A DNA stretch of 64,000 nucleotides from Escherichia coli (GTDB lineage Bacteria > Pseudomonadota > Gammaproteobacteria > Enterobacterales > Enterobacteriaceae): the NCBI RefSeq assembly GCF_022846255.1, contig NZ_AP025682.1. One strand, 5' to 3'. A program made the translations under genes and the position numbers. The notes under the pieces were generated by a model. It did no database searches. It saw only the letters and a list, made by a program, of their open reading frames with translations, and was not told the DNA's origin. This document shows, piece after piece, positions 1-26,913 of the stretch; within the stretch, counting starts at the first letter, position 1, and each line of letters begins with the position of its first letter.

Positions 1-1468
1 TAATGGGGATCACCCGGAACAGCCCATGTTTTTTCGAGCGTTCATACACAATGGTCGGGTCAATCCCGCCAATATCCCAGCAGATACGGGATACCGACAT
101 TTCTGCACCATTCCGGCGGGTATAGGTTTTATTGATGGCCTCATCCACACGCAGCAGCGTCTGTTCATCATCGTGGCGGCCCATAATAATCTGCCGGTCA
201 ATCAGCCAGCTTTCCTCACCCGGCCCCCATCCCCATACGCGCATTTCGTAGCGATCCAGCTGGGAGTCGATACCGGCAGTCAGGTAAGCCACACGGTCAG
301 GAACGGGCGCTGAATAATGCTCTTTCCGCTCTGCCATCACTTCAGCATCCGGACGTTCACCGATTTTCGCTTCCCATGTCTCACCGAGCGTGGTGTTCAC
401 GAAGGTTTTACGTTTTCCCGTATCCCCTTTCGTTTTCATCCAGTCTTTGACAATCTGCACCCAGGTGGTGAACGGGCTGTACGCCGTCCAGATGTGAAAG
501 GTCACGCTGTCCGGCGGCTCAATCTCTTCACCGGATGACGAAAACCAGAGAATGCCATCACGGGTCCAGATCCCGGTCTTTTCGCAGATATAACGGGCAT
601 CAGTGAAGTCCAGCTCCTGCTGGCGGATGACGCAGGCATTATGTTCGCAGAGATAAAACACGCTGGCGGGATCATCCGGCGTCCATTTGAGGCCAAACGG
701 CGTCTCTTTATCGCCAAATTTAAGGTACTGCTCCTCCCCGCAGTGCGGGCAGGCAACATGAAAACGCATAAAATGCGGGGATTCACTGGCTGCACGCTCA
801 ATCTGACAGGTGCCTCTCACTTTGGGCGTGGAGCCACGGATGGACTTTGGCCAGACCGAGCCTTCAATACGCTTGTCACCCAAGAACGTCGGAGAGCCTT
901 CCTGTTCAATATCATCATCAAAGGCAGCAAGTTCATCATAACCCGCCACATCCACCGACTTTTCACGGTAGTTTTTTGCCGCTTTACCGCCCAGGCACCA
1001 GAAACCACGCCCATTGGTGAAACGCTTCATGGTGAGCGTGTTATCCCGGTGCTTTTTGCCATACCACGGGGCCAGCGCCAGCAGCGACGGAATATCGCGG
1101 ATGGTCGGCTCAACGTGGGTTTTCATAAAGTTCTCGGCATCACCATCCGTCGGCAACCAGATAAGGGTGTTGCGCTGCTTATGCTCTATGAAGTAGGCAT
1201 AAACACCCAACAGCATTTTGGAATAACCGACACGGGCAGACTTCACCACATTCACCTCGCGGATGTAGTCGCTGCCCATCGCATTCATGATGGCCCGCTG
1301 AAAGGGCAGTGTTTCCCAGCGCCCTTCCTGGTATGCGGATTCTTTCGGGAGATAGTAATTGGCATCCGCCCATTCAACGGCGGTCTGTGGCTCCGGCCTG
1401 AACAGTGAGCGAAGCCCGGCGCGGACAAAATGCCGCAGCCTGTTAACCTGACTGTTCGATATATTCAC
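1..1468 (-). CDS. A: Terminase large subunit gpA, C-terminal part cut by window edge
   Basis: Minus-strand reading from GTG at 1468 gives MNISNSQVNRLRHF...; frame at window start reads ...TIVYERSKKHGLFRVIPI, matching lambda gpA as recalled; start overlaps Nu1 end. Not in ORF track because it has no stop inside the window. Confidence 0.85.
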   Translation of the reverse strand, partial: MNISNSQVNRLRHFVRAGLRSLFRPEPQTAVEWADANYYLPKESAYQEGRWETLPFQRAIMNAMGSDYIREVNVVKSARVGYSKMLLGVYAYFIEHKQRNTLIWLPTDGDAENFMKTHVEPTIRDIPSLLALAPWYGKKHRDNTLTMKRFTNGRGFWCLGGKAAKNYREKSVDVAGYDELAAFDDDIEQEGSPTFLGDKRIEGSVWPKSIRGSTPKVRGTCQIERAASESPHFMRFHVACPHCGEEQYLKFGDKETPFGLKWTPDDPASVFYLCEHNACVIRQQELDFTDARYICEKTGIWTRDGILWFSSSGEEIEPPDSVTFHIWTAYSPFTTWVQIVKDWMKTKGDTGKRKTFVNTTLGETWEAKIGERPDAEVMAERKEHYSAPVPDRVAYLTAGIDSQLDRYEMRVWGWGPGEESWLIDRQIIMGRHDDEQTLLRVDEAINKTYTRRNGAEMSVSRICWDIGGIDPTIVYERSKKHGLFRVIPI

Positions 1469-1988
1469 TCAGCAACCCCGGTATCAGTTCATCCAGCGCG
1501 GCTGCTTTGTTCATGGCTTTGATGATATCCCGTTTCAGGAAATCAACATGTCGGTTTTCCAGTTCCGGAAAACGCCGCTGCACCGACAGGGGGATCCCGT
1601 CGAGAATACTGGCAATTTCACCTGCGATCCGCGACAGCACGAAAGTACAGAATGCAGTTTCCACCACTTCAGCGGAGTCTCTGGCATTTTTCAGCTCCTG
1701 TGCGTCGGCCTGCGCACGCGTAAGTCGATGGCGTTCGTACTCAATAGTCCCTGGCTGGAGATCTGTCTCGCTGGCCTGCCGCAGTTCTTCAACTTCCCGG
1801 CGCAGCTTTTCGTTCTCAATTTCAGCATCCCTTTCGGCATACCATTTTATGACGGCGGCAGAGTCATAAAGCACCTCATTACCCTTCCCACCGCCTCGCA
1901 GAACGGGCATTCCCTGCTCCTGCCAGTTCTGAATGGTACGGATACTCGCACCGAAAATGTCAGCCAGCTGCTTTTTGTTGACTTCCAT
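1443..1988 (-). CDS. nu1: Terminase small subunit Nu1
   Basis: ORF track 181 aa, MEVNKKQLADIFGASIRTIQNWQEQGMPVLRGGG... essentially identical to lambda Nu1 as recalled. Confidence 0.95.
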   Translation of the reverse strand: MEVNKKQLADIFGASIRTIQNWQEQGMPVLRGGGKGNEVLYDSAAVIKWYAERDAEIENEKLRREVEELRQASETDLQPGTIEYERHRLTRAQADAQELKNARDSAEVVETAFCTFVLSRIAGEIASILDGIPLSVQRRFPELENRHVDFLKRDIIKAMNKAAALDELIPGLLSEYIEQSG

Positions 1989-2149
1989 TGTTCATTCCAC
2001 GGACAAAAACAGAGAAAGGAAACGACAGAGGCTAAAAAGCCCGTTTTCAGCACCTGTCGTTTCCTTTCTTTTCAGGGGGTGTTTTAAATAAAAACATTAG
2101 GTTACGGCGAAGAAGAACGGAAACGCCTTAAACCGGAAAATTTTCATAA

Positions 2150-2190
2150 ATAGCGAAAACCCGCGCGCCTTCCGCCCCGTAGTCTGCCGG
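2150..2190. other. cos region (cosN-like) upstream of Nu1
   Basis: Minus strand reads ACGGGGCGGAAGGCGCGCGGGTTTTCGCTATTTATGAAAATTTTCCGG, colinear with the lambda cos flank except a 6-nt block. Confidence 0.5.
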
Positions 2191-2331
2191 ATTGCCGGAA
2201 AGGACCCGCCAGCCATTCGGGTTTACTTCACAATGGGATTTAATATCTGAACGACCAAAGTTGTGCGACCACGGTCGCACAGACCTGAATACACGTCCTG
2301 TTTCTTCCACCCTCGCACAGGACTGACGAGC

Positions 2332-2514
2332 ATGAGGGACAAACCCGCGCACCATAAACGCGGTAAAAACCCGGTGTGCATCGTTTTTGATTATTCCCGC
2401 ACACTCACGCAGAAGGAATTCCCTGTCGGGCTACGGTCATGGTTAATGCGGGAATACAGCGACGATACAGCGCATGATGTGTCAGGCTTGAATACCCTTA
2501 TCGAATCCCGGTAA
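2332..2514 (+). CDS. Hypothetical small protein between cos and Rha gene
   Basis: In-frame ATG with AGGA upstream inside ORF 2263..2514; protein-like composition; overlaps an alternative minus-strand ORF 2128..2355. Confidence 0.25.
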   Translation: MRDKPAHHKRGKNPVCIVFDYSRTLTQKEFPVGLRSWLMREYSDDTAHDVSGLNTLIESR

Positions 2515-3030
2515 TAAAAACTGTCCCTGTCTCTCCAGGCGTTTCAGCTTTGCAAGCAATTGAGGTTTTTTCGTTCTCCCCCAGCGATTGAGCAGGCGGC
2601 CAGACATACTGGCGACATCCTTCTCTTTCATATACTCCAGCATTATGGCGTTGCGTTCTGCTTCATAACTTTCGCTGTACTTACGGAGTTCTGCTGACAT
2701 CCAGTTAAAGGCATTTATATAGGCCTCTTTAACGGCGTCGGCTTTTGCGCCATTAAATCCCATAACCAGCATAACGAAGCCGCTAAAGTCCATGCGGTAG
2801 TAAGTCTGCTTCTTGTCGAAAATCCCTAAGCCATTGATTTTTTCGGCAACGCAAAAATGCGCTCTCCGGAAATCTTCTGAGCAATGACAATTTTTCAGCG
2901 CCCTCAATACGTCCGCGTGACGCTTACCAAAAGCCTTTGCGATTTGGAAGGTGTCAGTTACCGGCTCACCCTCTGCTGCGGTAACTAACTGGCGAAAGTC
3001 AAAATCAGAAGTCTCAATTAATTCACTCAT
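2482..3030 (-). CDS. Rha-family phage regulatory protein (putative)
   Basis: 182 aa; N-terminal ...TDTFQIAKAFGKRHADVLRALKN... resembles Rha-family DNA-binding region. Confidence 0.55.
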   Translation of the reverse strand: MSELIETSDFDFRQLVTAAEGEPVTDTFQIAKAFGKRHADVLRALKNCHCSEDFRRAHFCVAEKINGLGIFDKKQTYYRMDFSGFVMLVMGFNGAKADAVKEAYINAFNWMSAELRKYSESYEAERNAIMLEYMKEKDVASMSGRLLNRWGRTKKPQLLAKLKRLERQGQFLLPGFDKGIQA

Positions 3031-4513: not shown

Positions 4514-4589
4514 TGGTGCTGGTTAACGGACTTGAACCGCTACCCATTCGCTTACAAGGCGACTGCTCTACCATTGGAGCTAAACCAGC
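4514..4589 (-). tRNA. tRNA-like gene, anticodon TGT (Thr) by manual folding
   Basis: Cloverleaf: acceptor GCTGGTT/AACCAGC, D-arm GCTC/GAGC, anticodon loop CTTGTAA, T-arm AGCGG-TTCAAGT-CCGTT, encoded CCA; one mismatch atop the anticodon stem. Confidence 0.55.
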
Positions 4590-4594
4590 ATATT

Positions 4595-4669
4595 TGGCGG
4601 GACAGCGTGGACTCGAACCACGATAAGAAGGTTAACAGCCTTCCGTAATGACCTTTATACGACTGACCC
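4595..4669 (-). tRNA. tRNA-like gene, anticodon GTT (Asn) by manual folding
   Basis: Anticodon stem GAAGG/CCTTC, loop CTGTTAA, T-arm CGTGG-TTCGAGT-CCACG, encoded CCA; acceptor and D stems each have one mismatch. Confidence 0.5.
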
Positions 4670-11990: not shown

Positions 11991-12170
11991 ATGACTACGA
12001 CTATTGATACAAATCAATGGTGTGGACAATTCAAACGATGCAATGGATGCAAGCTGCAATCGGAATGCATGGTTAAGCCTGAAGAAATGTTTCCTGTAAT
12101 GGAAGATGGGAAATATGTCGATAAATGGGCAATACGAACGACGGCAATGATTGCCAGAGAACTTGGTTAA
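11991..12170 (+). CDS. ral: Ral (restriction alleviation)
   Basis: Manual translation MTTTIDTNQWCGQFKRCNGCKLQSECMVKPEEMFPVMEDGKYVDKWAIRTTAMIARELG. Confidence 0.7.
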   Translation: MTTTIDTNQWCGQFKRCNGCKLQSECMVKPEEMFPVMEDGKYVDKWAIRTTAMIARELG

Positions 12171-12373
12171 CAGAACAACAAAGCTGCCTGATAGTGGCCT
12201 TTATTTTTGGCATAAATAACAGAATAAACACTGCACCGTGTATTCATTCCAACGAGTGAATACACGGAGCAATGTCGCTCGTAACTAAACAGGAGCCGAT
12301 TTGTTCTGATTATTGGAAATCTTCTTTGCCCTCCAGTGTGAGGGCGATTTTTTATCTATGAGGATATGAATAG

Positions 12374-12742
12374 GTGTCAAACATCAAAAAATACATCATT
12401 GATTACGACTGGAAAGCATCAATTGAAATTGAAATCGACCATGACGTAATGACAGAGGAAAAACTTCACCAGATTAATAATTTCTGGTCAGACTCTGAAT
12501 ACCGACTCAATAAACACGGCTCTGTATTAAATGCTGTATTAATCATGCTGGCGCAACATGCTCTGCTTATAGCAATTTCAAGCGACTTAAATGCATATGG
12601 TGTTGTGTGTGAGTTCGACTGGAATGATGGAAATGGTCAGGAAGGATGGCCTCCAATGGATGGTAGCGAAGGAATAAGAATTACCGATATCGATACATCA
12701 GGAATATTTGATTCAGATGATATGACTATCAAGGCCGCCTGA
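12374..12742 (+). CDS. ea10: Ea10 (ssDNA-binding protein)
   Basis: 122 aa, MSNIKKYIIDYDWKASIEIEIDHDVMTEEKLHQ... Confidence 0.85.
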   Translation: MSNIKKYIIDYDWKASIEIEIDHDVMTEEKLHQINNFWSDSEYRLNKHGSVLNAVLIMLAQHALLIAISSDLNAYGVVCEFDWNDGNGQEGWPPMDGSEGIRITDIDTSGIFDSDDMTIKAA

Positions 12743-12814
12743 GTGCGGCTTTACCGCATACCAATAACGCTTCACTCGAGGCGTTTTTCGTTATGTATAA
12801 ATAAGGAGCACACC

Positions 12815-12979
12815 ATGCAATATGCCATTGCAGGGTGGCCTGTTGCTGGCTGCCCTTCCGAATCTTTACTTGAACGAATCACCCGTAAATTACGTGACGG
12901 ATGGAAACGCCTTATCGACATACTTAATCAGCCAGGAGTCCCCAAAAATGGATCAAACACTTATGGCTATCCAGACTAA
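12815..12979 (+). CDS. cIII: CIII (FtsH inhibitor)
   Basis: Internal Met of ORF 12743..12979: MQYAIAGWPVAGCPSESLLERITRKLRDGWKRLIDILNQPGVP... Confidence 0.85.
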   Translation: MQYAIAGWPVAGCPSESLLERITRKLRDGWKRLIDILNQPGVPKNGSNTYGYPD

Positions 12980-13091
12980 ATTCACTATCGCCACTTTTAT
13001 TGGCGATGAAAAGATGTTTCGTGAGGCCGTCGACGCTTATAAAAAATGGATATTAATACTGAAACTGAGATCAAGCAAAAGCATTCACTAA
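12948..13091 (+). CDS. kil: Kil
   Basis: [47 protein letters not shown] at the end of ORF 12822..13091. Confidence 0.8.
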
Positions 13092-13462
13092 CCCCCTTTC
13101 CTGTTTTCCTAATCAGCCCGGCATTTCGCGGGCGATATTTTCACAGCTATTTCAGGAGTTCAGCCATGAACGCTTATTACATTCAGGATCGTCTTGAGGC
13201 TCAGAGCTGGACGCGTCACTACCAGCAGATCGCCCGTGAAGAGAAAGAGGCAGAACTGGCAGACGACATGGAAAAAGGCCTGCCCCAGCACCTGTTTGAA
13301 TCGCTATGCATCGATCATTTGCAACGCCACGGGGCCAGCAAAAAAGCCATTACCCGTGCGTTCGATGACGATGTTGAGTTTCAGGAGCGCATGGCAGAAC
13401 ACATCCGGTACATGGTTGAAACTATTGCCCGCCACCAGGTTGATATTGATTCAGAGGTATAA
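13046..13462 (+). CDS. gam: Gam (RecBCD inhibitor)
   Basis: 138 aa, [35 protein letters not shown]... Confidence 0.95.
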
Positions 13463-13467
13463 AACGG

Positions 13468-14253
13468 ATGAGTACAGCACTCGCAACGCTGGCAGGGAAG
13501 CTGGCTGAACGTGTCGGCATGGATTCTGTCGACCCACAGGAACTGATCACCACTCTTCGCCAGACAGCATTTAAAGGCGATGCCAGCGATGCGCAGTTCA
13601 TCGCATTGCTGATCGTCGCCAACCAGTACGGCCTTAATCCGTGGACGAAAGAAATTTACGCCTTCCCTGATAAGCAGAACGGCATCGTTCCGGTGGTGGG
13701 CGTTGATGGCTGGTCCCGTATCATCAATGAAAACCAGCAGTTTGATGGCATGGACTTTGAGCAGGACAATGAATCCTGCACATGCCGGATTTACCGCAAG
13801 GACCGTAATCATCCGATCTGCGTTACCGAGTGGATGGATGAATGCCGCCGCGAACCATTCAAAACCCGCGAAGGCAGAGAAATCACGGGGCCGTGGCAGT
13901 CGCATCCCAAACGGATGTTACGTCATAAAGCCATGATTCAGTGTGCCCGTCTGGCCTTCGGATTTGCTGGTATCTATGACAAGGATGAAGCCGAGCGCAT
14001 TGTCGAAAATACCGCATACACTGTAGAACGTCAGCCGGAACGCGACATCACTCCGGTTAACGATGAAACCATGCAGGAGATTAACACTCTGCTGATCGCC
14101 CTGGATAAAACATGGGATGACGACTTATTGCCGCTCTGTTCCCAGATATTTCGCCGCGACATTCGCGCATCGTCAGAACTGACACAGGCCGAAGCAGTGA
14201 AAGCTCTTGGATTCCTGAAACAGAAAGCCACTGAGCAGAAGGTGGCAGCATGA
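13468..14253 (+). CDS. bet: Bet (Red-beta recombinase)
   Basis: 261 aa, [32 protein letters not shown]... Confidence 0.95.
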
Positions 14254-14930
14254 CACCGGACATTATCCTGCAGCGTACCGGGATCGACGTGAGAGCTGTC
14301 GAACAGGGGGATGATGCGTGGCACAAATTACGGCTCGGCGTCATCACCGCTTCAGAAGTTCACAATGTGATAGCAAAACCCCGCACCGGAAAAAAGTGGC
14401 CTGACATGAAAATGTCCTACTTTCACACCCTGCTGGCTGAGATTTGCACCGGTGTGGCTCCGGAAGTTAACGCTAAGGCGCTGGCCTGGGGAAAACAGTA
14501 CGAGAACGACGCCAGAGCCCTGTTTGAGTTTACTTCCGGCGTGAATGTTACTGAATCCCCGATCATCTATCGCGACGAAAGTATGCGCACCGCCTGCTCT
14601 CCCGATGGTTTATGCAGTGACGGCAATGGCCTTGAGCTGAAATGCCCGTTTACCTCCCGGGATTTCATGAAGTTCCGGCTCGGTGGTTTCGAGGCCATAA
14701 AATCGGCTTACATGGCCCAGGTGCAGTACAGCATGTGGGTGACGCGAAAAGATGCCTGGTACTTTGCCAACTATGACCCGCGTATGAAGCGTGAAGGCCT
14801 GCATTATGTCGTGATTGAGCAGAATGAAAAGTACATGGCGAATTTTGACGAGATGGTGCCGGAGTTCATCGAAAAAATGGACGTGGCACTGGCTGAAATT
14901 GGTTTTGTATTTGGGGAGCAATGGCGATGA
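14250..14930 (+). CDS. exo: Exo (Red-alpha exonuclease)
   Basis: 226 aa, [43 protein letters not shown]... Confidence 0.95.
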
Positions 14931-15109
14931 AGCATCCTCACGATAATATCCGGGTAGGCGCGATCACTTTCGTCTACTCCGTTACAAAGCGAGGCTGGGT
15001 ATTTCCCGGCCTTTCTGTTATCCGAAATCCCCTGAAAGCACAGCGGCTGGCTGAGGAGATAAATAATAAACGGGGAGCTGTATGCACAAAGCATCTCCCG
15101 TTGAGTTAA
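14921..15109 (+). CDS. Lambda orf60a-like small protein
   Basis: [37 protein letters not shown]... Confidence 0.6.
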
Positions 15110-15273
15110 GAACGAGTATCGAGATGGCACATAGCCTCGCTCAAATTGGAGTCAGGTTTGTGCCAATACCAGTAGAAACAGACGAAGAATTTCATACGTT
15201 AGCCGCATCCCTTTCACAAAAGCTGGAAATGATGGTGGCGAAAGCAGAAGCAGATGAGAGAGACCAGGTATGA
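15082..15273 (+). CDS. Lambda orf63-like small protein
   Basis: [38 protein letters not shown]... Confidence 0.6.
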   Translation: MHKASPVELRTSIEMAHSLAQIGVRFVPIPVETDEEFHTLAASLSQKLEMMVAKAEADERDQV

Positions 15274-15349
15274 CAACCACTGAATGCATTTTTCTGGCAG
15301 CGGGCTTCATATTCTGTGTGCTTATGCTTGCCGACATGGGGCTTGTTCA

Positions 15350-15565
15350 GTGACACCTCAGCAAGAAAACGCCCTTCGCAGCATTGCCCGTCAGGCTAAT
15401 TCTGAAATCAAAAAAGCCAGACAGCAGTTTCCGGATAAAAACGTCGATGACATTTGCCGTAGCGTACTGAAGAAGCACCGCGAAACGGTAACGCTGATGG
15501 GATTCACACCGACTCATTTAAGCCTTGCGATCGGCATGTTGAACGGCGTCTTTAAGGAACGGTGA
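15350..15565 (+). CDS. Lambda orf61-like small protein
   Basis: GTG start inside ORF 15284..15565: VTPQQENALRSIARQANSEIKKARQQFPDKNVDDICRSVLKKH... Confidence 0.5.
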   Translation: MTPQQENALRSIARQANSEIKKARQQFPDKNVDDICRSVLKKHRETVTLMGFTPTHLSLAIGMLNGVFKER

Positions 15566-15663
15566 ACATGAAAAGCAAAATCATCAGGGAGCTACAGGCT
15601 CCTTTTTTATTATTCGCATTTACCCTCAAGCGTATTAACCAACAATTCAGGGATTAATGAAAG

Positions 15664-15885
15664 ATGGCGGACATCATTGATTCAGTATCAGAAATTGAAG
15701 AATTACAGCGCAATACAGCAATAAAAATGCGTCGTCTGAACCACCAGACTATATCTGCCACTCATTGTTGTGAGTGTGGCGATCCGATAGATGAACTAAG
15801 ACGTCTGGCCGTTCAGGGTTGTCGGACTTGTGCAAGTTGCCAGGAAGATCTGGAGCTTATCAGTAAACAGAGAGGTTCGAAGTGA
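15664..15885 (+). CDS. TraR/DksA-family C4 zinc-finger protein
   Basis: 73 aa with CCECGDPIDELRR...CRTCASC four-Cys motif. Confidence 0.6.
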   Translation: MADIIDSVSEIEELQRNTAIKMRRLNHQTISATHCCECGDPIDELRRLAVQGCRTCASCQEDLELISKQRGSK

Positions 15886-16091
15886 GCGAAATTAACTCTC
15901 AGGCACTGCGTGAAGCGGCGGAACGTGCAATTCCAGCAATGGAACGCCTGTTAATGTTGCCAGCTGATGATGATTTGTTAAGTGAACAGGAACTTAAAGA
16001 TTACGGTGTGGATATTGATGCGCTCAACGCCTTCAAATTTCTGGCCGGACCAGAAACCGTGCTGGCACTGCGCCGTCAGGAAGTTTTTTAG
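15882..16091 (+). CDS. Hypothetical acidic protein, last gene of the pL operon
   Basis: 69 aa, GTG start overlapping the TraR-like stop, so likely translationally coupled. Confidence 0.5.
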   Translation: MSEINSQALREAAERAIPAMERLLMLPADDDLLSEQELKDYGVDIDALNAFKFLAGPETVLALRRQEVF

Positions 16092-16120
16092 TACGATCAA
16101 TGGTTAACTCAACTCTCATG
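16034..16120 (-). CDS. Candidate 28-aa ORF downstream of the LexA-box promoter
   Basis: Strong SD GAGGAGGG 5 nt before ATG; MRVELTIDRTKKLPDGAVPARFLVRPEI; antisense to the 3' end of gene 15882..16091. Confidence 0.25.
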
Positions 16121-16138
16121 ATTCCCTCCTCATTGATT

Positions 16139-16189
16139 TACTGTGTGAATATACAGTTACTTTATAAACCTCTCATTTGGATTTTGCAA
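16139..16189 (-). promoter_or_regulatory. Putative LexA-repressed promoter
   Basis: Minus strand TTGCAA, 17-bp spacer, TATAAA, then TACTGTGTGAATATACAGTT on + (CTGT-N8-ACAG) covering the predicted start site. Confidence 0.5.
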
Positions 16190-16223
16190 TGTTTTAAGGG
16201 CACGAATTGCGAATAACCCTATA

Positions 16224-16256
16224 CAAAAAAACCCGCCGAAGCGGGTCTTATCTTTC
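16224..16256. terminator. Bidirectional intrinsic terminator
   Basis: AAAAAAA-CCCGC-CGAA-GCGGG-TCTTATCTTTC; strong U-tract for minus-strand transcripts, weaker for the plus-strand pL operon. Confidence 0.6.
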
Positions 16257-16257
16257 A

Positions 16258-16431
16258 TTAATGCTTAGTCCTTACAGGAAAAGACCAGCATTTATATCCG
16301 TATGCGTGTGCATCCAAAACTCGGCGCTCTGAGTCAGGCGTCCCAGCTTTAGCTCGCGCCCTGCGATAACGACATTTTACCCAGCGGAAACCATCCGGAA
16401 GTTTTTTGGTAGGAATTTCTTTCAAAGCCAT
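16258..16431 (-). CDS. Candidate 58-aa basic ORF
   Basis: ATG with GAGG 7 nt upstream; MALKEIPTKKLPDGFRWVKCRYRRARAKAG...; below the ORF-track size cutoff. Confidence 0.2.
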   Translation of the reverse strand: MALKEIPTKKLPDGFRWVKCRYRRARAKAGTPDSERRVLDAHAYGYKCWSFPVRTKH

Positions 16432-16580
16432 AAATAAACCTCGTTCCAGGCGAGCACTTCCCTGAAACTTGATAAAAATATGGGGATCCGCTAATGTACT
16501 GTTGTTGACGCAGTACTGATTGCGGGTGCTCTAACATCCCCAATCCGAGCCCTTCCCCGGCAAAGGAAGGGCTCAAATTC

Positions 16581-17111
16581 TTATGAAGGCTTCACATACG
16601 CCTTCAAAATCGACATAATACGCTCAGCTTCTTCCATCGTGATGTTGGTAGGCAACCCCTGAACTGTAATCATTGCCCCTGTTTCAGGTCGAACAACGAT
16701 CGGTAAATTGAAAGTCTGCACTTTCTCATGTCTTGCAGCTTTAGCTTTCTCCATCTTCTGCTCCACCGCATCAAACCCATCTAAATTTCCTTCGGTGTCT
16801 GCCAAGTTGACTAAAGTCCCCACTCGCGTGTACTCCTCAAACTTATTGACAGCACTTTTAAACCGGCTTCGATAATTATGAATGGTGGATTCACTGGGCT
16901 TGTTTGCCTGAGTTTCAGCATAACGAGTAATGAGGTCTTCAACGTTCAGGTCGCGCACATCATCGTTGTCACTCGTGTCGACCACAGATAACAGCAGCAA
17001 CGCAGAATTTTTTAAGTTGCGAGCTGTTGCTTCGTTGATCAGCCCCAAGTTAGGCAACTTCATAAGAAAATCGAAGAATGCTTGCGTTGAGTAATTATCG
17101 TTCATAAGCAT
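16581..17111 (-). CDS. Hypothetical protein, 176 aa, no recognisable family
   Basis: ORF track; ATG start; hairpin GAGCCCTTCC...GGAAGGGCTC just after the stop. Confidence 0.6.
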   Translation of the reverse strand: MLMNDNYSTQAFFDFLMKLPNLGLINEATARNLKNSALLLLSVVDTSDNDDVRDLNVEDLITRYAETQANKPSESTIHNYRSRFKSAVNKFEEYTRVGTLVNLADTEGNLDGFDAVEQKMEKAKAARHEKVQTFNLPIVVRPETGAMITVQGLPTNITMEEAERIMSILKAYVKPS

Positions 17112-17156
17112 CTCTCATTGTTATCCATAGGTGTAGTGTAGATTCAGAGGTTTTAC

Positions 17157-17196
17157 CGATCAATGTTTTTTTTATCGATCGATCAATCTTTTTTTA
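17157..17196 (-). promoter_or_regulatory. GATC-clustered direct repeats in the leader of the 176-aa gene
   Basis: Three GATC within 27 bp; two copies of CGATCAAT each followed by a T-run, 45-85 bp upstream of the start codon. Confidence 0.35.
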
Positions 17197-17337
17197 AATC
17201 TAACCAATCCCACCCACTTAAAAACACTCAACAACATTTCACCCCCTCAGAAACAAAATAAAATAAACTATATAAAACAACAAAATACACAGATCTATAA
17301 AACAGACAACCGCCCCCGCCTCCCCCACCCCATACTG
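17186..17337 (-). repeat. Strand-asymmetric tract: G-depleted on +, G-rich on -
   Basis: About 6 G in ~150 nt on +; minus strand has GGGGTGGGGGAGGCGGGGGCGG (17310-17331) and further G-runs. Confidence 0.45.
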
Positions 17338-17407
17338 AATTTAGATACAGCCTTAGTTAATCAACCTTCGTTCACCAGAGCAGCACATATGCCTTCGGAC
17401 TTTTTAG

Positions 17408-17995
17408 TTAAGCCACAAATGGCAGTTTGCACAGTTCTGGTAGATTTGCCCTTACCAGAGCCTCCGCGAATTGTGGAGGTACGGCATTTCCGCATCTGGC
17501 GACCTGTTTATCCTTCGCATACTTCACGCCACGATAATCTTGGTCGATGATGTACCAGTCCGGGAAGCCCTGCGCCCGGTACAGTTCACGCGGCTGTAAC
17601 ATGCGCATACCAATATCAACAATGCGATACGTCACGCCATCGATCACCACCAGCCCGGTACAATCCTCGCCACAGTATTTACGCAGGAACGACAGCGTTT
17701 GTTGCGCGCGTTCTTCGTCGTACTCATCTACGGCAAGATGGGTTTCAACGTTCCCTACATGCAGGCCACCAGCCGTGACAGTCGGCATTGGCGCGTCGGT
17801 GCGTTGTCCATCCCGGCAGGTTCCGCGCAATTTAACCAGGTGAGAAGCAACCACAGCATGGTGATCGACGGTGGTCACAGAATGCATCGGCTCATCCATC
17901 CCCACTTCGGCAATAAACCGGTAAAGGTGTTCGCGATAAAGGTGAATATCAATGACTAAATCAGCAGCAGAAAGCAAAAGAATTTTTAGGTACAA
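17408..17995 (-). pseudogene. Remnant of a DNA cytosine-C5 methyltransferase (C-terminal part only)
   Basis: Motif IX-like RMLQPRELYRAQGFPDWY and motif X-like ARCGNAVPP present; no FxGxGG or PCQ motifs; ORF opens only with TTG. Confidence 0.6.
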
Positions 17996-18065
17996 TCAAA
18001 ATCACTTTTTGTTGTTAACTATTTGATGAACTACAAGGATAAGATCATGTATCAGCAAATCATTT

Positions 18066-18356
18066 TTGAAGAAGGAAAAGAACCAAGAGTGCACACAAGC
18101 CACCAAGACATCAAGACATCAAGACATCAAGACATCAAGACATCAAGACATCAAGTCTATCGAAATAAGTGATAACAGTGGAAAAGTTCAAGAGATTTCG
18201 GTTATGGAGTTCAAGGATACCAGAGGAGATGTTTTTTATGCTTACAACTATGCTTATTCTGGTAAAAAACCATCAAATGACGAAATCTATAAGGCTATTG
18301 ATGAGCTAAAGCCAATCGGTGAAAAATTCGAAATGTCTAAGACTATAAGCGATTAG
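18066..18356 (+). CDS. Hypothetical small protein containing an octanucleotide tandem repeat
   Basis: ORF track (TTG start, no SD); upstream ATG at 18047 with AAGGA SD is out of frame by one repeat unit. Confidence 0.4.
   Translation: MKKEKNQECTQATKTSRHQDIKTSRHQDIKSIEISDNSGKVQEISVMEFKDTRGDVFYAYNYAYSGKKPSNDEIYKAIDELKPIGEKFEMSKTISD
18102..18157 (+). repeat. Octanucleotide tandem repeat ATCAAGAC
   Basis: Five perfect units at 18110-18149 flanked by ACCAAGAC and ATCAAGTC; unit length is not a multiple of 3. Confidence 0.9.
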
Positions 18357-18518
18357 ATAAATCTGTTTTCAACATTGCAGCAAAATCATAGGAAGAACGC
18401 GACAAAGTTAACATGCTATCGCGAACAGTCGTTAACATCACCTAAAGTCAGCGAATCGCGATACATGGAAATGTCTGGGAAGAACGCCAAGAAGTAAGCG
18501 CAATTTGAACAAATGCGA

Positions 18519-18545
18519 ACCCGCCGAGTGCGGGTTTTCTTTTAT
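18519..18545 (+). terminator. Intrinsic terminator
   Basis: ACCCGC-CGAGT-GCGGGT followed by TTTCTTTTAT. Confidence 0.6.
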
Positions 18546-18586
18546 CTGAACTCGCTACGGCGGGTTTTGTTTTATGGAGACAAGAA

Positions 18587-18931
18587 ATGTCAGATTTGGC
18601 TATGAAGGTTTTGAAATGGCAATCGACTGGCGATGTTGGCATCAGTAGCGCAACTCTTGCCTCAATCGCATGTGGACTGAAAAAGAATATCTATGGTCAT
18701 AGCTTCGGTGCTCCACATGACGCAGCCGATTTCCGACGATGCGTTGCGCTTGTCGAGCAGATTCCAGAAATCAGGGATTCATTCGACAAGGTTGCAAAGC
18801 GCGTTCCGGCATTCAAAGGCATCCTCAACGAATGGGATTCTCTCGTTGCTCTGTTGAAGTCTGAAATGAAGATACACGGAAACAAAGCACCAGAGACTTA
18901 CAGAAGAATTAGCGAGTTACGCAAGGACTAA
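18587..18931 (+). CDS. Hypothetical protein, 114 aa, no recognisable family
   Basis: ORF track; ATG with GGAGA SD; MSDLAMKVLKWQSTGDVGISSATLASIACGLKK... Confidence 0.55.
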   Translation: MSDLAMKVLKWQSTGDVGISSATLASIACGLKKNIYGHSFGAPHDAADFRRCVALVEQIPEIRDSFDKVAKRVPAFKGILNEWDSLVALLKSEMKIHGNKAPETYRRISELRKD

Positions 18932-18989
18932 CCACAGCCTCACACTCGATGAGGCCCGTTCATTTCTCAAGATATCCAGACCTACCATT

Positions 18990-19012
18990 GCCGCATCAAT
19001 GCGGCTTTTCTT
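18990..19012 (+). terminator. Putative terminator before xis
   Basis: GCCGCA-TCAA-TGCGGC followed by TTTTCTT. Confidence 0.45.
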
Positions 19013-19036
19013 GCGTGTAATTGCGGAGACTTTGCG

Positions 19037-19255
19037 ATGTACTTGACACTTCAGGAGTGGAACGCACGCCAGCGACGCCCAAGAAGCCTTGAAACAGTTC
19101 GTCGATGGGTGCGCGAATGCAGGATATTCCCTCCTCCGGTTAAGGATGGAAGAGAGTATCTGTTCCACGAATCAGCGGTAAAGGTTGACTTAAATCGACC
19201 AGTAACAGGTAGCCTTTTGAAGAGGATCAGAAATGGGAAGAAGGCGAAGTCATGA
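19037..19255 (+). CDS. xis: Excisionase Xis
   Basis: 72 aa, MYLTLQEWNARQRRPRSLETVRRWVRECRIFPPPVKDGREYLFHESAVKVDL... near-identical to lambda Xis as recalled. Confidence 0.9.
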   Translation: MYLTLQEWNARQRRPRSLETVRRWVRECRIFPPPVKDGREYLFHESAVKVDLNRPVTGSLLKRIRNGKKAKS

Positions 19256-20306
19256 GCGCCGGGATTTACCCCCTAACCTTTATATAAGAAACAATGGATA
19301 TTACTGCTACAGGGACCCAAGGACGGGTAAAGAGTTCGGATTAGGCAGAGACAGGAGGATAGCAATTACTGAAGCAATACAGGCCAATATTGAGTTACTC
19401 TCAGACAGCGGACGCAAATCACTAATAGACAGAATTAAAGGCGGTGACGCAATCACTCTTCATGTGTGGCTTGACCGATATGAAACAATCCTCACCGAAA
19501 GGGGGATCAGGCCGAAAACTCTACTCGACTACGCCAGCAAAATCAGGGCAATCCGAAGAAAATTGCCGGACAAACCGCTCACTGACATATCAACGAAAGA
19601 AGTGGCAGCAATGCTAAACACCTACGTAGCAGAAGGTAAAGCAGCTTCCGCAAAATTAATCAGGTCAACCCTTGTTGACGTTTTTCGTGAAGCAATAGCC
19701 GAGGGGCATGTGGCAACGAATCCGGTAACAGCAACCCGTACAGCAAAGTCAGAAGTAAGGCGCTCAAGGCTGACAGCTAATGAGTATGTCGAGATTTACC
19801 ATGCAGCCGAACCTCTCCCTATCTGGCTAAGGCTGGCGATGGATTTGGCCGTCGTTACAGGGCAGAGAGTCGGCGATTTGTGCAGAATGAAATGGTCAGA
19901 CATAAACGACAACCATCTTCACATTGAACAGAGTAAAACAGGGGCTAAACTCGCCATTCCGCTAACGCTAACGATTGACGCGCTCAATATCTCATTGGCT
20001 GATACACTACAGAAATGCAGGGAGGCCAGCAGCAGTGAAACTATAATCGCATCAAAGCATCACGATCCGCTTTCCCCGAAAACAGTATCAAAGTATTTTA
20101 CAAAGGCGAGAAATGCATCTGGACTCTCATTTGATGGAAACCCGCCAACATTCCATGAACTGCGTAGCCTGTCAGCGAGGCTATACCGGAACCAGATTGG
20201 CGATAAGTTTGCTCAACGTCTTCTCGGGCATAAATCAGACTCAATGGCGGCGCGGTATAGGGACAGCCGTGGACGGGAATGGGACAAAATTGAAATCGAC
20301 AAATGA
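19233..20306 (+). CDS. int: Tyrosine integrase, lambda family, HK022-like
   Basis: 357 aa; N-terminal arm-binding domain identical to lambda Int, central and catalytic domains diverged; RSLSARLY and HKSD motifs. Confidence 0.95.
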   Translation: MGRRRSHERRDLPPNLYIRNNGYYCYRDPRTGKEFGLGRDRRIAITEAIQANIELLSDSGRKSLIDRIKGGDAITLHVWLDRYETILTERGIRPKTLLDYASKIRAIRRKLPDKPLTDISTKEVAAMLNTYVAEGKAASAKLIRSTLVDVFREAIAEGHVATNPVTATRTAKSEVRRSRLTANEYVEIYHAAEPLPIWLRLAMDLAVVTGQRVGDLCRMKWSDINDNHLHIEQSKTGAKLAIPLTLTIDALNISLADTLQKCREASSSETIIASKHHDPLSPKTVSKYFTKARNASGLSFDGNPPTFHELRSLSARLYRNQIGDKFAQRLLGHKSDSMAARYRDSRGREWDKIEIDK

Positions 20307-20400
20307 TTTTATTTTGACTAATAATGACCTGCCTACATTAATTCATTGATAATAAAAGAGATTTTAAATATACAACTTATTCACCTAAAGTGCACCGACC
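20307..20400. other. Approximate prophage-chromosome junction (attL)
   Basis: AT-rich 94 bp between int stop and torS start; core not located at nucleotide resolution. Confidence 0.35.
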
Positions 20401-23133
20401 GTGAATTTAACCCTGACCCGAAGACTCTGGATGGGCTTTGCCCTGATGGCGCTGTTAACCCTGACCAGTACCCTGGTGGGATGGTACAACCTGCGCTTTA
20501 TCAGCCTGGTGGAAAAAGACAACACTCAGGCATTGATTCCTACCATGAATATGGCGCGCCAGTTGAGCGAAGCCAGCGCCTGGGAACTTTTCGCCGCGCA
20601 GAACCTGACCAGTGCCGATAACGAAAAGATGTGGCAGGCGCAGGGGCGAATGCTCACCGCACAAAGCCTGAAGATTAATGCGTTGCTGCAAGCGTTACGG
20701 GAACAAGGTTTTGACACCACCGCTATTGAACAACAGGAGCAGGAGATCTCCCGTTCGTTACGTCAGCAAGGGGAACTGGTGGGACAGCGTTTGCAACTGC
20801 GCCAGCAACAACAGCAACTCAGTCAGCAGATAGTCGCCGCCGCCGATGAGATCGCACGCCTGGCGCAAGGTCAGGCGAATAATGCGGCAACCTCCGCCGG
20901 AGCGACCCAGGCCGGGATTTACGATTTGATCGAACAACATCAGCGTCAGGCCGCAGAAAGTGCACTCGATCGGCTGATTGATATCGATCTTGAGTATGTT
21001 AACCAGATGAATGAACTGCGCCTTAGCGCCCTACGGGTGCAGCAAATGGTGATGAATCTGGGGCTGGAACAGATCCAGAAAAATGCGCCAACGCTGGAAA
21101 AGCAGCTCAATAATGCGGTGAAAATTCTGCAACGTCGGCAAATACGCATTGAAGATCCGGGTGTTCGTACTCAGGTAGCAACAACGTTAACTACCGTTAG
21201 CCAATATAGCGATTTGCTGGCGCTGTATCAGCAGGACAGTGAAATCAGCAATCACCTGCAAACTCTCGCCCAAAATAACATCGCCCAATTCGCGCAGTTT
21301 AGTAGCGAAGTCAGTCAGCTGGTCGACACCATTGAGCTGCGTAATCAGCACGGACTGGCGCATCTGGAAAAAGCCAGTGCACGCGGGCAATACAGCCTGT
21401 TATTGCTGGGGATGGTTTCACTTTGCGCACTGATACTGATCCTCTGGCGCGTGGTTTATCGCTCAGTCACGCGTCCACTTGCCGAACAAACGCAGGCACT
21501 GCAACGACTGCTGGACGGTGATATTGACTCCCCTTTCCCGGAAACCGCTGGCGTACGGGAACTGGACACCATCGGGCGGCTGATGGATGCGTTTCGCAGC
21601 AGTGTTCATGCACTGAATCGCCACCGTGAACAGTTGGCGGCGCAGGTCAAAGCGCGTACAGCTGAATTGCAGGAACTGGTGATAGAACACCGACAGGCAC
21701 GGGCGGAAGCAGAAAAAGCCAACCAGGCAAAATCAGCGTTTCTGGCGGCGATGAGCCATGAGATCCGCACACCGCTGTACGGTATTCTCGGTACCGCACA
21801 GCTACTGGCAGATAACCCCGCACTTAACGCTCAGCGTGATGATTTGCGGGCAATTACCGACTCTGGCGAATCGTTGCTGACCATCCTCAACGATATTCTC
21901 GATTATTCGGCTATCGAAGCAGGCGGCAAGAATGTTTCGGTCAGCGATGAACCCTTTGAACCGCGCCCGTTGCTGGAAAGTACCCTGCAATTAATGAGCG
22001 GACGGGTGAAAGGTCGCCCGATTCGCCTGGCAACGGCAATTGCCGACGATGTACCGACTGCGTTAATGGGCGATCCGCGGCGTATTCGTCAGGTCATTAC
22101 CAACCTGTTGAGCAACGCCCTGCGTTTCACCGACGAAGGGCACATTATCCTGCGTAGTCGCACTGATGGCGAACAATGGCTGGTCGAAGTGGAAGACAGC
22201 GGTTGCGGTATTGATCCCGCGAAACTGGCAGAAATCTTCCAGCCATTTGTTCAGGTAAGCAGCAAACGCGGCGGAACCGGGCTGGGGCTGACTATCAGTA
22301 GCCGTCTGGCCCAGGCGATGGGCGGCGAACTGAGCGCCACCAGCACGCCGGAGGTTGGAAGCTGTTTTTGTTTACGCTTGCCGTTACGTATTGCCACTGC
22401 ACCCGTGCCAAAAACAGTCAATCAGGCGGTACGTCTGGACGATTTGCGTTTGCTGTTAATTGAAGATAACCCGCTCACCCAGCGAATTACTGTCGAAATG
22501 CTGAACACCAGTGGTGCGCAGGTCGTTGCAGTAGGAAATGCCGCGCAGGCTTTAGAGACACTGCAAAATAGTGAACCATTTGCTGTCGCACTGGTGGATT
22601 TTGATCTGCCGGATATCGACGGCATTACGCTTGCCCGGCAACTGGCACAGCAATATCCGTCGCTGGTTTTGATTGGCTTTAGCGCTCATGTCATCGACGA
22701 AACACTGCGCCAGCGTACCAGTTCGCTATTTCGCGGGATTATCCCTAAACCGGTGCCGCGTGAAGTGCTCGCTCAATTACTGGCGCACTATCTCCAACTG
22801 CAAGTCAAAAATGATCAACCGCTGGATGTATCGCAACTCAATGAAGATGCTCATTTAATGGGGGCGGAGAAGATCCACGAATGGCTGATATTATTTAAAC
22901 AACATGCCCTGCCGCTTCTCGATGAAATCGACATTGCCCGCGCCAGTCAGGATAACGAGAAAATAAAGCGTGCCGCACATCAGCTAAAAAGCAGTTGCTC
23001 GAGTCTGGGAATGCGTAGCGCCAGCCAGCAATGCGCACAACTGGAGCAGCAGCCATTATCTGCCCCCCTTCCACACGAAGAAATTACACGCAGTGTTGCC
23101 GCTCTGGAAGCATGGTTAATAAGAAAGACCTGA
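20401..23133 (+). CDS. torS: TorS hybrid sensor kinase
   Basis: 910 aa, [33 protein letters not shown]..., HisKA/HATPase/receiver/HPt; GTG start. Confidence 0.95.
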
Positions 23134-23215
23134 ACGCGATTTGAATCAATATCAGCCAGTTAAGAACAACTAGAATAGTGGCATTTGGTATGCAACTTAA
23201 CGGACTGGCAAAATC

Positions 23216-24289
23216 ATGGCAGAGAAAAAAAGAACCCGCTGGCAGCGGCGGCCAGGCACGACGGGCGGCAAATTACCGTGGAATGACTGGCGCAATGCCA
23301 CGACCTGGCGTAAAGCGACGCAATTATTACTGTTGGCAATTAATATTTATATTGCCATCACGTTCTGGTATTGGGTGCGCTATTACGAAACGGCAGGTAG
23401 TACGACATTTGTCGCCAGACCGGGAGGTATCGAAGGCTGGCTACCGATTGCCGGTCTGATGAATCTGAAATATAGCCTTGCAACAGGTCAGTTACCGTCC
23501 GTCCACGCCGCCGCGATGCTGTTATTGGTCGCTTTTATCGTCATCAGTCTATTACTCAAAAAGGCCTTTTGTTCATGGTTATGCCCGGTTGGTACGCTTT
23601 CGGAATTAATCGGCGATCTCGGTAACAAACTGTTTGGTCGGCAATTTGTCCTTCCCCGCTGGCTGGATATTCCTCTGCGCGGCGTGAAGTATTTGCTGTT
23701 GAGTTTTTTTCTCTATATCGCGTTATTGATGCCCGCTCAGGCGATTCACTATTTTATGTTGTCGCCCTACAGCGTGGTGATGGACGTTAAAATGCTCGAT
23801 TTCTTTCGTCATATGGGGACCGCGACATTAATCAGCATGATCGTTTTGCTGATTGCCAGCCTGATTATTCGCCATGCCTGGTGTCGTTATCTTTGCCCAT
23901 ATGGCGCGCTGATGAGCGTGGTTTCGCTATTATCGCCGTTTAAGATTCGTCGCAATGCCGAAAGTTGTATCGATTGTGGCAAATGCGCAAAAAGTTGCCC
24001 ATCACGGATCCCGGTCGATAAATTAATTCAGGTACGAACAGTGGAATGTACCGGCTGTATGACTTGCGTAGAGTCATGTCCGGTAGCCTCAACATTGACC
24101 TTTTCACTGCAAAAACCTGCGGCAAATAAAAAAGCCTTTGCGTTGTCTGGCTGGTTAATGACGCTACTGGTTATGGGGATTATGTTTGCGGCGATTGGTT
24201 ACGCAATGTATGCGGGAGTATGGCAAAGCCCGGTGCCGGAGGAATTGTACCAACGCTTAATTCCGCAATCGCCAATGATTGGTCACTAA
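23216..24289 (+). CDS. yccM: YccM, 4Fe-4S membrane protein
   Basis: 357 aa, polytopic, CxxCxxCxxxCP ferredoxin motifs. Confidence 0.9.
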   Translation: MAEKKRTRWQRRPGTTGGKLPWNDWRNATTWRKATQLLLLAINIYIAITFWYWVRYYETAGSTTFVARPGGIEGWLPIAGLMNLKYSLATGQLPSVHAAAMLLLVAFIVISLLLKKAFCSWLCPVGTLSELIGDLGNKLFGRQFVLPRWLDIPLRGVKYLLLSFFLYIALLMPAQAIHYFMLSPYSVVMDVKMLDFFRHMGTATLISMIVLLIASLIIRHAWCRYLCPYGALMSVVSLLSPFKIRRNAESCIDCGKCAKSCPSRIPVDKLIQVRTVECTGCMTCVESCPVASTLTFSLQKPAANKKAFALSGWLMTLLVMGIMFAAIGYAMYAGVWQSPVPEELYQRLIPQSPMIGH

Positions 24290-24337
24290 ATTAGCAACAA
24301 GCGGAACATCACCTCGCACGGGGTGATGTTCACAAAA

Positions 24338-24511
24338 TCACATTATTTTGATTTTGACATCATAACTTTCAAGCCCGGTCATTTTTTCTCGTGCGGTGAA
24401 GCGAATTTCAGAGACTTCTTTCCCTGTATTCTTGTTCAGCTCGGCGATTTTTTGCGCGATAAAGTCGGCGATTTCCGTTTCGGCTTGTTTTTTTAACTCT
24501 TCAATATTCAC
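24338..24511 (-). CDS. gnsA: GnsA
   Basis: Manual translation from GTG: MNIEELKKQAETEIADFIAQKIAELNKNTGKEVSEIRFTAREKMTGLESYDVKIKIM. Confidence 0.75.
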   Translation of the reverse strand: MNIEELKKQAETEIADFIAQKIAELNKNTGKEVSEIRFTAREKMTGLESYDVKIKIM

Positions 24512-24731
24512 TGTTAACCTCTTCTGGTCTTAAAAGACAGCAACACGCCAGTAAGGTGTTGGTTCCCGGTACCCTGGTCAGGTAAGAAATGTTATAAGCC
24601 ATCTCCCCGAAAGATTCAATAATCAACAGGTTATCGCTTACTATACATACAGCGTTGAAGAAAAATAAGGCAGATATAAAAAAGGCTCCACGAGGGAGCC
24701 TGATATTATTTTGTGAAATCCAGCGGCGCAT
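24501..24731 (-). CDS. ymcE: YmcE
   Basis: Internal Met of ORF 24501..24764: MRRWISQNNIRLPRGAFFISALFFFNAVCIV... Confidence 0.65.
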   Translation of the reverse strand: MRRWISQNNIRLPRGAFFISALFFFNAVCIVSDNLLIIESFGEMAYNISYLTRVPGTNTLLACCCLLRPEEVNSEY

Positions 24732-24904
24732 GGTCAGTGCGTATTTGCAGCGCAACGTTATCAAAGGTGATCATCGTCGATTTACAAAAAATGCACTTTG
24801 CACCCAAAGGATTTCGCTCCGTCACATCGAATGCCGATGTGCGGTACTGTGAACCATGGCAACATGGACAGCGGAAATGGAGATGTTGAGTAATAACGGC
24901 AACC

Positions 24905-25117
24905 TTAGAGTGTAACAACGTTCGCTGCCGCGGGACCACGTTGCCCCTGCTCAATAGAAAATTCAACTTTCTGATTTTCGTTCAGCGTGCGGAATTCATT
25001 GCTCTGGATGGCAGTGAAATGGACGAAAACGTCTTTGCTGCCATCATCAGGAGTGATAAAGCCAAAACCTTTATCTGCGTTAAACCATTTTACTAAACCA
25101 GTCATTTTATTAGACAT
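24905..25117 (-). CDS. cspG: Cold-shock protein CspG
   Basis: 70 aa, [34 protein letters not shown]... Confidence 0.9.
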
Positions 25118-25402
25118 ATTTTACTTCCTTCATTTTGGGCCTTTCGGCAAACAGGGCTTTAATACAGAAACTACTTAGTGTTCAGGAGAGAGACTCAAAA
25201 GAAGGGGATAATGCCTGATAATGAGAACTGCTTTAGTAAACTACTTTGTATGCTGTCTGTCTTTCAAACCGACGCAGCTATTAACGCATGATAATTGAGA
25301 TTAAGCAAATTTTATTTTAGCCGTCCGGCGGTCTTAAATATCGCTGGCTTTATTTTATTAACCCCGTATAGTGCAGCGCAGTATTTTCAGTAAGGAATTT
25401 GT

Positions 25403-25615
25403 TTGTCCCGTAAAATGACAGGAATTGTCAAAACCTTTGATCGCAAAAGCGGCAAAGGATTCATTATCCCCTCCGACGGTCGTAAAGAAGTCCAGGTCCA
25501 TATTTCCGCATTCACTCCCCGCGACGCAGAAGTGCTTATACCAGGATTACGCGTGGAATTTTGCCGCGTAAATGGCCTGCGTGGACCAACAGCGGCAAAT
25601 GTTTATTTGTCTTGA
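25403..25615 (+). CDS. cspH: CspH-like cold-shock-domain protein
   Basis: 70 aa, [33 protein letters not shown]... Confidence 0.8.
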
Positions 25616-26913
25616 TGGAGAGCGCACGCTGGTATGCGTGCTTCATTCACGATTTGCGTAAAACCGGCCAACGAACACATGCCCTGCGCATTTCGCTCTT
25701 CACATCCTGCCAGGGTCAGTTTCACCTCTCCGGGCGGCGTATTTAATGATAGCGGCGTTTTATCACGCATCTGCTGTAAAGTCTGGAAGACCAGCGAAAC
25801 CTGAATCCACTGGCTGTTATCGCTGAGCCGACGCCAGCGTTCAAACACCAGTTCACCACCTGGCGGCGTGTTATCCGGCTGACCTGGAAGTGTCCAGTTG
25901 AGCTCCAGTGCGCCGCCGAGATTTGCCAGATTAGTATCGTGTCCGGCAATAAACAGCACTGAAGTGGGTAATGTCACACCATACGCCTGTTTTTGCGATG
26001 GATGGGGCGTCAACGCTGCCATGATCAAATCCAATAACGGGGTGGCGCGACTGCGGGCAACCTCTGGCGTGCGTTGTAGTAAATAAAATTGCGCGTTATG
26101 TAGACTTAGCAAGGTGTTCCACTGGTGTGAATCGGTGATCCTTCCCCACCCCGGCTCCGGCATTCCCTGTGCTTGTTGCAGGAGAAATATCTCCGTCAGC
26201 ATTGATGCGAGGCTTACCGCACCGGTTAATGAGACATTGTCGGCGCTCACCTTGAGTTCCGATGGTAATGCCTGCGTTAATGAACAGCTTTCGTCCTGTT
26301 TCTTACGGTTAAGGCACAAGTTTGATTGCGGGAAATTAAGCACCCGTTCCAGTTCGCGAAACGCCGTTTGCCGATGCCCGGCAAAGTCAGCAATTGCCCC
26401 TCCTGCCCTACTGAGGATCGCGTCAGTCACGTTCGCGTTATCCAGTTGGCAAACGCCAGTTTTTAGAGGATTAAATAACGGATCGGGACTGGACGTATCT
26501 GCCTGGGTATGTACGGTTATTGCACAGTCAGGTTCCAGCCCGGCGGCGAAGGCTTCGCCTGTTTTACGGGTACGTTCGTCGACATCAGCAATAACCGCGA
26601 CCTGACCTGGCTGCGGGCAGCCCTTTTTTGCCAGCAATCCGTCGGCCACCAGACGCTGGCGTTGGTAATGTCCGAGATAAGCGATTAACTCACCACCGCG
26701 CGGTGTCAGCCAACCCAGTTTTACCGGCCAGGTTGGCCATGCGTCAGGGGTGACATCCTGCATCAGTTGCGTGGCCTTGGTTGGTGCACGCACACCGTGA
26801 CGACTGACAATCACCACACTTTCCAGCTTCAGCTCCGGCTCACTCTGAGCGAATGCAGATTTCGGTGTTAACGGAATCAGAAGAGATAAGAATGGGATCA
26901 AGATCGCTTTCAT
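25603..26913 (-). CDS. appA: AppA periplasmic acid phosphatase/phytase
   Basis: [46 protein letters not shown]..., RHGxRxP motif. Confidence 0.95.

Follow-up and report, generated by a model that had tools for sequence, protein, structure and literature searches.

The cosN element is defined as a 12-bp cohesive end with 2 bp on each side (PMC9026076). In lambda-like cos sites the CG flanks, the left half of cosN and cosQ are conserved, the left half being the half under selection (PMC4669245). Lambda-like phages commonly vary at bp 7-12; for example, N15 and phiD326 differ at bp 9 and 12, and Gifsy-1 differs at bp 8, 9 and 11 (PMC4669245). Mutations in the right half have minimal phenotypes and do not measurably affect cos cleavage, whereas the symmetric mutations in the left half are severe (PMC4669245, Feiss et al. 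2015). Lambda carrying the N15 cosN produced 132 pfu per cell versus 120 for lambda with its own cosN, and lambda terminase uses the N15 site at full efficiency (PMC4669245). TerS bound at R3 of cosB anchors TerL for the bottom-strand nick, so that this nick is insensitive to local sequence (PMC4669245, PMC9026076). The published data on right-half tolerance cover one to three substitutions, and the allele described here, AAGGCG, changes five of the six positions.

Right-half variation in cosN is thus already known as a phenomenon. The survey of Vahanian et al. 2017 (Virology 509:140) is said to be devoted to cosN variation. In the literature searched, outside of which that survey lies, the exact 12-mer of the present site, GGGCGGAAGGCG, and its complement were absent, and only unrelated plant and Streptomyces papers matched.

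The cos site and its closest relatives

The window, which is the whole stretch of 64,000 nucleotides of Escherichia coli DNA that was analysed, was aligned to circularised lambda (J02459) for a position-by-position comparison of cosN. The features of the site and of the adjoining terminase genes are as follows.

1-1468, minus strand: A (TerL, gpA), N-terminal 489 codons, truncated by the window start; an open frame with no stop, 486 of 489 residues identical to lambda gpA
1443-1988, minus strand: Nu1 (TerS), 181 aa; 179 of 181 residues identical to lambda Nu1
2012-2027, minus strand: cosB R1, homologous to lambda bp 152-167; lambda-identical, limits by analogy with R3
2055-2070, minus strand: cosB R2, an inverted R repeat homologous to lambda bp 108-123; lambda-identical, limits by analogy with the R3 core CGTTTCC
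2071-2112, minus strand: R3-R2 interval, the site of IHF site I1 in lambda; contains SNPs at bp 71 and 97 that are linked to AAGGCG
2113-2128, minus strand: cosB R3, the critical TerS binding site, lambda bp 50-65; lambda-identical, extent from PMC9026076
2164-2179, minus strand: cosN, the 12-bp cohesive end with a 2-bp CG flank on each side; colinear with lambda cos, no gaps
2166-2171, minus strand: variant block, cohesive-end bp 7-12, AAGGCG (CGACCT in lambda), from the alignment with lambda
2172-2177, minus strand: left half of cosN, GGGCGG, cohesive-end bp 1-6; same as lambda
2178/2177 on the minus strand and 2166/2165 on the plus strand: predicted nicks, positions by homology with lambda
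2201-2207, minus strand: cosQ (GGGTCCT), the packaging-termination element; lambda-identical, 23 nt upstream of the predicted top-strand nick, as in lambda

On the minus (Nu1) strand the sequence across cosN reads ...GGGTCCTTTCCGGCAATCCGGCAGACTACG/GGGCGGAAGGCG/CGCGGGTTTTCGCTATTTATG..., where slashes mark the predicted nicks. The lambda reference begins with GGGCGGCGACCTCGCGGG and ends with ...GGGTCCTTTCCGGTGATCCGACAGGTTACG (cohesive end GGGCGGCGACCT), and the lambda sequence that the initial annotation had given for the centre of cosN was correct. Its observation that the centre of cosN differs from lambda by a 6-nt block also holds, since the alignment to the lambda cos reference confirmed that the difference is real. 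Within cosN the changes are confined to cohesive-end bp 7, 8, 9, 10 and 12 (CGACCT to AAGGCG). The C at bp 11 is kept, so that the change consists of five substitutions inside a 6-nt block, and 7 of the 12 positions of the cohesive end (bp 1-6 and 11) are the same as in lambda. The sequence GGGCGGAAGGCGCGCGGG occurs a single time in the window, at 2160-2177 on the minus (Nu1) strand, where the chance expectation for a match with three or fewer mismatches is 0.07. Inversion of the block as its origin was rejected, as the reverse complement of CGACCT is AGGTCG and matches AAGGCG at only four of six positions.

The rest of the site is that of lambda. The alignment is free of gaps from cosQ through R2, and cosQ, the left half of cosN, the CG dinucleotides at both nick sites, R3, R2 and R1 are all lambda-identical. 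The nick contexts on the minus strand are ACG/GGGCGG....../CGCGGG, with the CG flanks as in lambda. The order R3, I1, R2, R1 is as in lambda, and the spacing from cosN to R3 is unchanged. The differences from lambda outside cosN are a few SNPs between R3 and R2 and a 1-nt deletion between R2 and R1, the latter common to most wild relatives; cosQ is invariant among all relatives aligned. The number of rotationally symmetric pairs in cosN, counted from the sequence, is five in lambda and four in the variant. Taken on its sequence, the site is very probably an intact lambda-specificity cos (cosQ-cosN-cosB) that carries a naturally circulating right-half allele of cosN and would be cleaved normally at the lambda positions.

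The cosN of N15 and phiD326 (GGGCGGCGTCCG) is also a natural right-half variant and has G at bp 12 in common with the window. However, it differs from lambda at only two positions, and in N15 cosB is simple, with R3 alone, and TerL is 64.9% identical to that of lambda (PMC4669245, PMC9026076), whereas the window combines a complex lambda cosB with a lambda terminase. The N15-type simple cosB (a single R3 and rR2, without I1, R2 and R1) was not found in the window, which has three R repeats, and the N15 sequence downstream of cosN is unrelated to it.

An identical cosN, a nearly identical cosB and a lambda-type terminase are found in PhiR46_1, YDC107_1 and pEC21Z151-46K. The last of these (NZ_CP101200.1, about 46 kb) encodes a protelomerase, a CyRepA1-family RepA and SopA/ParB (SopAB), which identify it as a linear phage-plasmid of the N15 kind. 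The annotation of its terminase is nohD/large terminase, and the head and tail genes are arranged in a lambda-like way. PhiR46_1 has the size of pEC21Z151-46K and the same layout in the stretch compared, outside of which the protelomerase region lies. Its gpA is identical to that of lambda at 638 of 641 residues (about 99.5%), compared with about 65% for the N15 TerL. YDC107_1 is classified in Ravinvirus. The element in the window, in contrast, is an integrated lambdoid prophage beside torS.

Other right-half alleles were CGCGCT in mEp213 and LLS, TGACCT in 2B8 and CGACCG in FDAARGOS_1295 (NZ_CP069890.1), together with CAGGCG, CAGACG and CTGACG in IMG/VR. In all of these bp 1-6 and the CG flanks are conserved, and the variation is confined to bp 7-12. 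All are rarer than AAGGCG, and most are one or two positions away from lambda, CAGGCG, CAGACG and CTGACG being four away. CAGACG and CTGACG adjoin a different cosB, and the record of phage 2B8 is linearised within the cohesive end.

Distribution of the allele and the terminases beside it

Two GenBank phage records carry the AAGGCG cosN, PhiR46_1 (PV340565) and YDC107_1 (CP025712). PhiR46_1, for which GenBank gives ECOR13 (a laboratory host) as the host, is an isolated, infectious temperate phage. The original description of this phage, PhiR46.1, is reportedly that of Brenes & Laub 2025. In these two, the sole GenBank phage carriers, the site is internal, and no GenBank phage record has an AAGGCG cos at either end.

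In a first scan of IMG/VR the six positions bp 7-12 were left free, and among the 120 matches listed there were 102 with CGACCT, 16 with AAGGCG and 2 with CAGGCG. The second scan accepted any base other than T at bp 12 and only sites with a genuine cosQ context, and it identified AAGGCG in 68 contigs, with CAGGCG 4 times, CAGACG 3 times and CTGACG once. A flank-free scan identified the same 68 AAGGCG contigs again. Among these 68 there was none with the AAGGCG site at a contig end. One metagenomic contig (IMGVR_UViG_3300045988_113976, 56 kb) contains two AAGGCG cos sites and could represent two prophages or a concatemeric assembly.

Among 5,426 complete E. coli genomes, 178 had matches to a 61-nt query with the variant at its centre, at 193 places in all, 16 of them on plasmid records. 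The corresponding query for the lambda allele matched 8,426 places in 4,491 genomes. These counts derive from megablast seeding rather than from exact pattern matching and are rough frequencies. Seven of the 178 records fell in the 80-90% identity band, and the one inspected has CGACCG. In the spot check as a whole, AAGGCG was present in two of three records, the CGACCG record being the third and of the lowest identity band, and the number of complete E. coli genomes that carry AAGGCG is about 170 of 5,426. The carriers include both integrated lambdoid prophages and N15-like phage-plasmids. Sequencing error was rejected as a source of the block because the block is identical in the two GenBank phages, the 68 IMG/VR contigs and the approximately 170 E. 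coli genomes.

Although in the minority, AAGGCG recurs with exact conservation; it ranks second in overall frequency and is the most diverged allele found beside a lambda-specificity cosB. It occurs on several different upstream flanks, including the commonest lambda-type flank in five contigs, and its linkage with the cosB SNPs at bp 71, 97 and 137 is strong and incomplete. AAGGCG, CAGGCG, CAGACG and CTGACG form a graded series, the rarer members of which occur partly with a different cosB. This has the look of an old cos haplotype reshuffled through the mosaic recombination usual in lambdoid phages, and not of a recent mutation in this prophage.

The terminase genes do not follow the allele. 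Nu1 and the visible part of A are nearly identical to those of lambda, as the initial annotation had reported. The only differences in Nu1 are at residues 75 and 132, both outside the N-terminal winged-helix domain, the recognition-helix and wing residues of TerS being located according to PMC9026076. The window stops within A, and the late genes of the prophage beyond A are outside it. At the IMG/VR loci the same Nu1 protein adjoins both cosN alleles, and a comparison of 37 gpA proteins from lambda-allele loci with 9 full-length ones from AAGGCG loci identified no residue that tracks the allele. Evidently one terminase type serves both alleles, since an identical Nu1 occurs with both and gpA has no allele-specific residue. 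A changed nuclease specificity of the terminase was rejected for this lack of co-variation in Nu1 and full-length gpA.

Predicted cleavage and alternative readings

At the variant site, TerS (Nu1) would bind R3, R2 and R1 of cosB and so place TerL (gpA), which would cut at the lambda positions, with the top-strand nick between G(-1) and G1 and the bottom-strand nick between bp 12 and 13. The GGGCGG left half and the CG flanks, both important for nicking, are unchanged, and the bottom-strand nick adjoining cosB should depend little on sequence because TerL would be anchored there. The packaged chromosome would then have 12-nt 5' ends, 5'-GGGCGGAAGGCG and the complement 5'-CGCCTTCCGCCC. These ends would be complementary to each other within the phage and as stable as those of lambda, and they would not be complementary to lambda ends. 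Normal cleavage at the homologous positions, giving 5'-GGGCGGAAGGCG, is the most likely outcome, since the nick contexts, cosQ, cosB and the spacings equal those of lambda, from which we infer both the nick positions and the efficiency.

The G at bp 12 and the resulting G/CG nick context are compatible with a defined 12-nt end because N15 has both; the N15 GenBank record annotates the physical 12-nt end GGGCGGCGTCCG, which is followed by CG. The predicted stability of the cohesive-end duplex is -19.0 kcal/mol for lambda and -18.6 kcal/mol for the variant, with 10 of 12 positions GC in both. In a heteroduplex of lambda and variant ends only bp 1-6 would pair, with a predicted stability of -9.5 kcal/mol.

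The initial annotation had suggested that the prophage would either make a different cohesive end or have impaired cos cleavage, in keeping with prophage decay. The first part is probably right, given the nick contexts, cosQ, cosB and spacings of lambda. The second part, in which the block is a lesion that damages cosN, could draw on the five of six right-half bases unlike lambda, on the partial dyad of lambda, of which one symmetric pair (G3/C10) and the central one (G6/C7) are lost, and on the position of the late genes beyond A, outside the window. However, the same cosN is present in a functional relative, the isolated temperate phage PhiR46.1, with a lambda-type terminase, and damage would not be expected to be as conserved and widespread as this allele, which is found in 68 IMG/VR contigs and about 170 complete genomes on several flanking backgrounds. 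Right-half changes were also silent in experiments, bp 7-12 being tolerant (PMC4669245), and neither Nu1 nor the part of A in the window is disrupted. Conversely, DLP12 of K-12, which is truly and long since defective, retains the lambda allele, and this indicates that AAGGCG is no marker of decay. A lesion is for these reasons extremely improbable, and the block is ordinary natural variation. A shift in the register of the cut is a different concern, since the variant sequence GGCG/CGCGGG repeats CG every 2 nt and the resulting GCGCGCG run offers alternative CG/CG contexts, from which overhangs of 10 or 14 nt, or heterogeneous ones, could arise. TerL is not highly sequence-specific (PMC9026076), which would allow this. 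Against it, the bottom nick is set by the distance to the TerS-bound R3, where a 3-bp change in spacing is already deleterious (PMC9026076) and where the spacing is unchanged in the window, and N15, in which G12 is followed by CGC, still has a defined 12-nt end. We therefore regard a shifted register as very unlikely.

It can also be asked whether the allele is maintained by its incompatibility with the lambda end, so that CGACCT and AAGGCG would be mutually non-annealing end types that partially isolate co-infecting lambda-like phages sharing the lambda terminase. The predicted heteroduplex, paired at bp 1-6 only (-9.5 versus about -19 kcal/mol for matched ends), fits such a role, as does the roughly 4-fold cost in yield of a 2-bp mismatch (PMC4669245). 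In addition, two haplotypes dominate with few intermediates, and the allele is in linkage disequilibrium with the cosB SNPs at bp 71, 97 and 137. If this were so, a hybrid concatemer in which one cos is CGACCT and the other AAGGCG would yield chromosomes that cannot cyclise, and cosN would be a cheap partial barrier to single-crossover recombination, or to rescue of a resident prophage or satellite, between otherwise inter-fertile lambda-like phages. However, Nu1 is identical and gpA nearly identical with both alleles, and AAGGCG occurs on the commonest lambda-type upstream flank in five contigs, which together imply that exchange around cos is frequent. Old neutral divergence with mosaic recombination explains the haplotypes equally well. 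Of the observations made here, only the two-haplotype pattern speaks for maintenance through incompatibility, which is a very unlikely explanation.

As a probably intact cos with a circulating right-half allele, the site is of limited importance, and it provides a natural experiment in support of the published model of functional asymmetry in cosN. All right-half positions except C11 are replaced while the terminase is still about 99.5% identical to that of lambda, and the carriers include at least one phage that has been isolated and is infectious. There are also some practical consequences. Tools for annotation or terminus prediction that rely on the exact lambda 12-mer would overlook about 13% of the sites among the 120 IMG/VR matches listed and, in complete E. 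coli genomes, about 2% of the cos sites of lambda type. The DNA of AAGGCG phages is not expected to anneal to lambda arms, and AAGGCG should not be taken as a sign of a defective prophage.

Surroundings of the prophage

The integration site of the prophage is next to torS/yccM (window 12000-24000 and beyond). None of the 5,426 complete E. coli genomes is more than about 98% identical to the torS-side chromosome or more than about 97% to the cos region. The best matches to the former are soil and pond isolates. The host may belong to a divergent or environmental Escherichia lineage.

A syntenic AAGGCG prophage is present at torS in strain VCSW7 (NZ_CP082357.1). At 14436-26682 of that record, an insertion of about 11 kb interrupts the major capsid gene, which is of the lambda type. 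The insertion has integrase, primase, SSB, capsid and decoration genes of its own as well as an abortive-infection gene, and it resembles a satellite or PICI-like element that has entered gene E.

The window has two further features of note. At 4514-4669, tRNA-Thr(TGT) and tRNA-Asn(GTT) are located between the Q antiterminator and holin genes, and the same arrangement is found in VCSW7. In lambda the position between Rz and cos is occupied by bor and other genes. In the window this position contains an ORF of 182 aa (2482-3030), whose homologue in related E. coli prophages bears the annotation Rha family transcriptional regulator.
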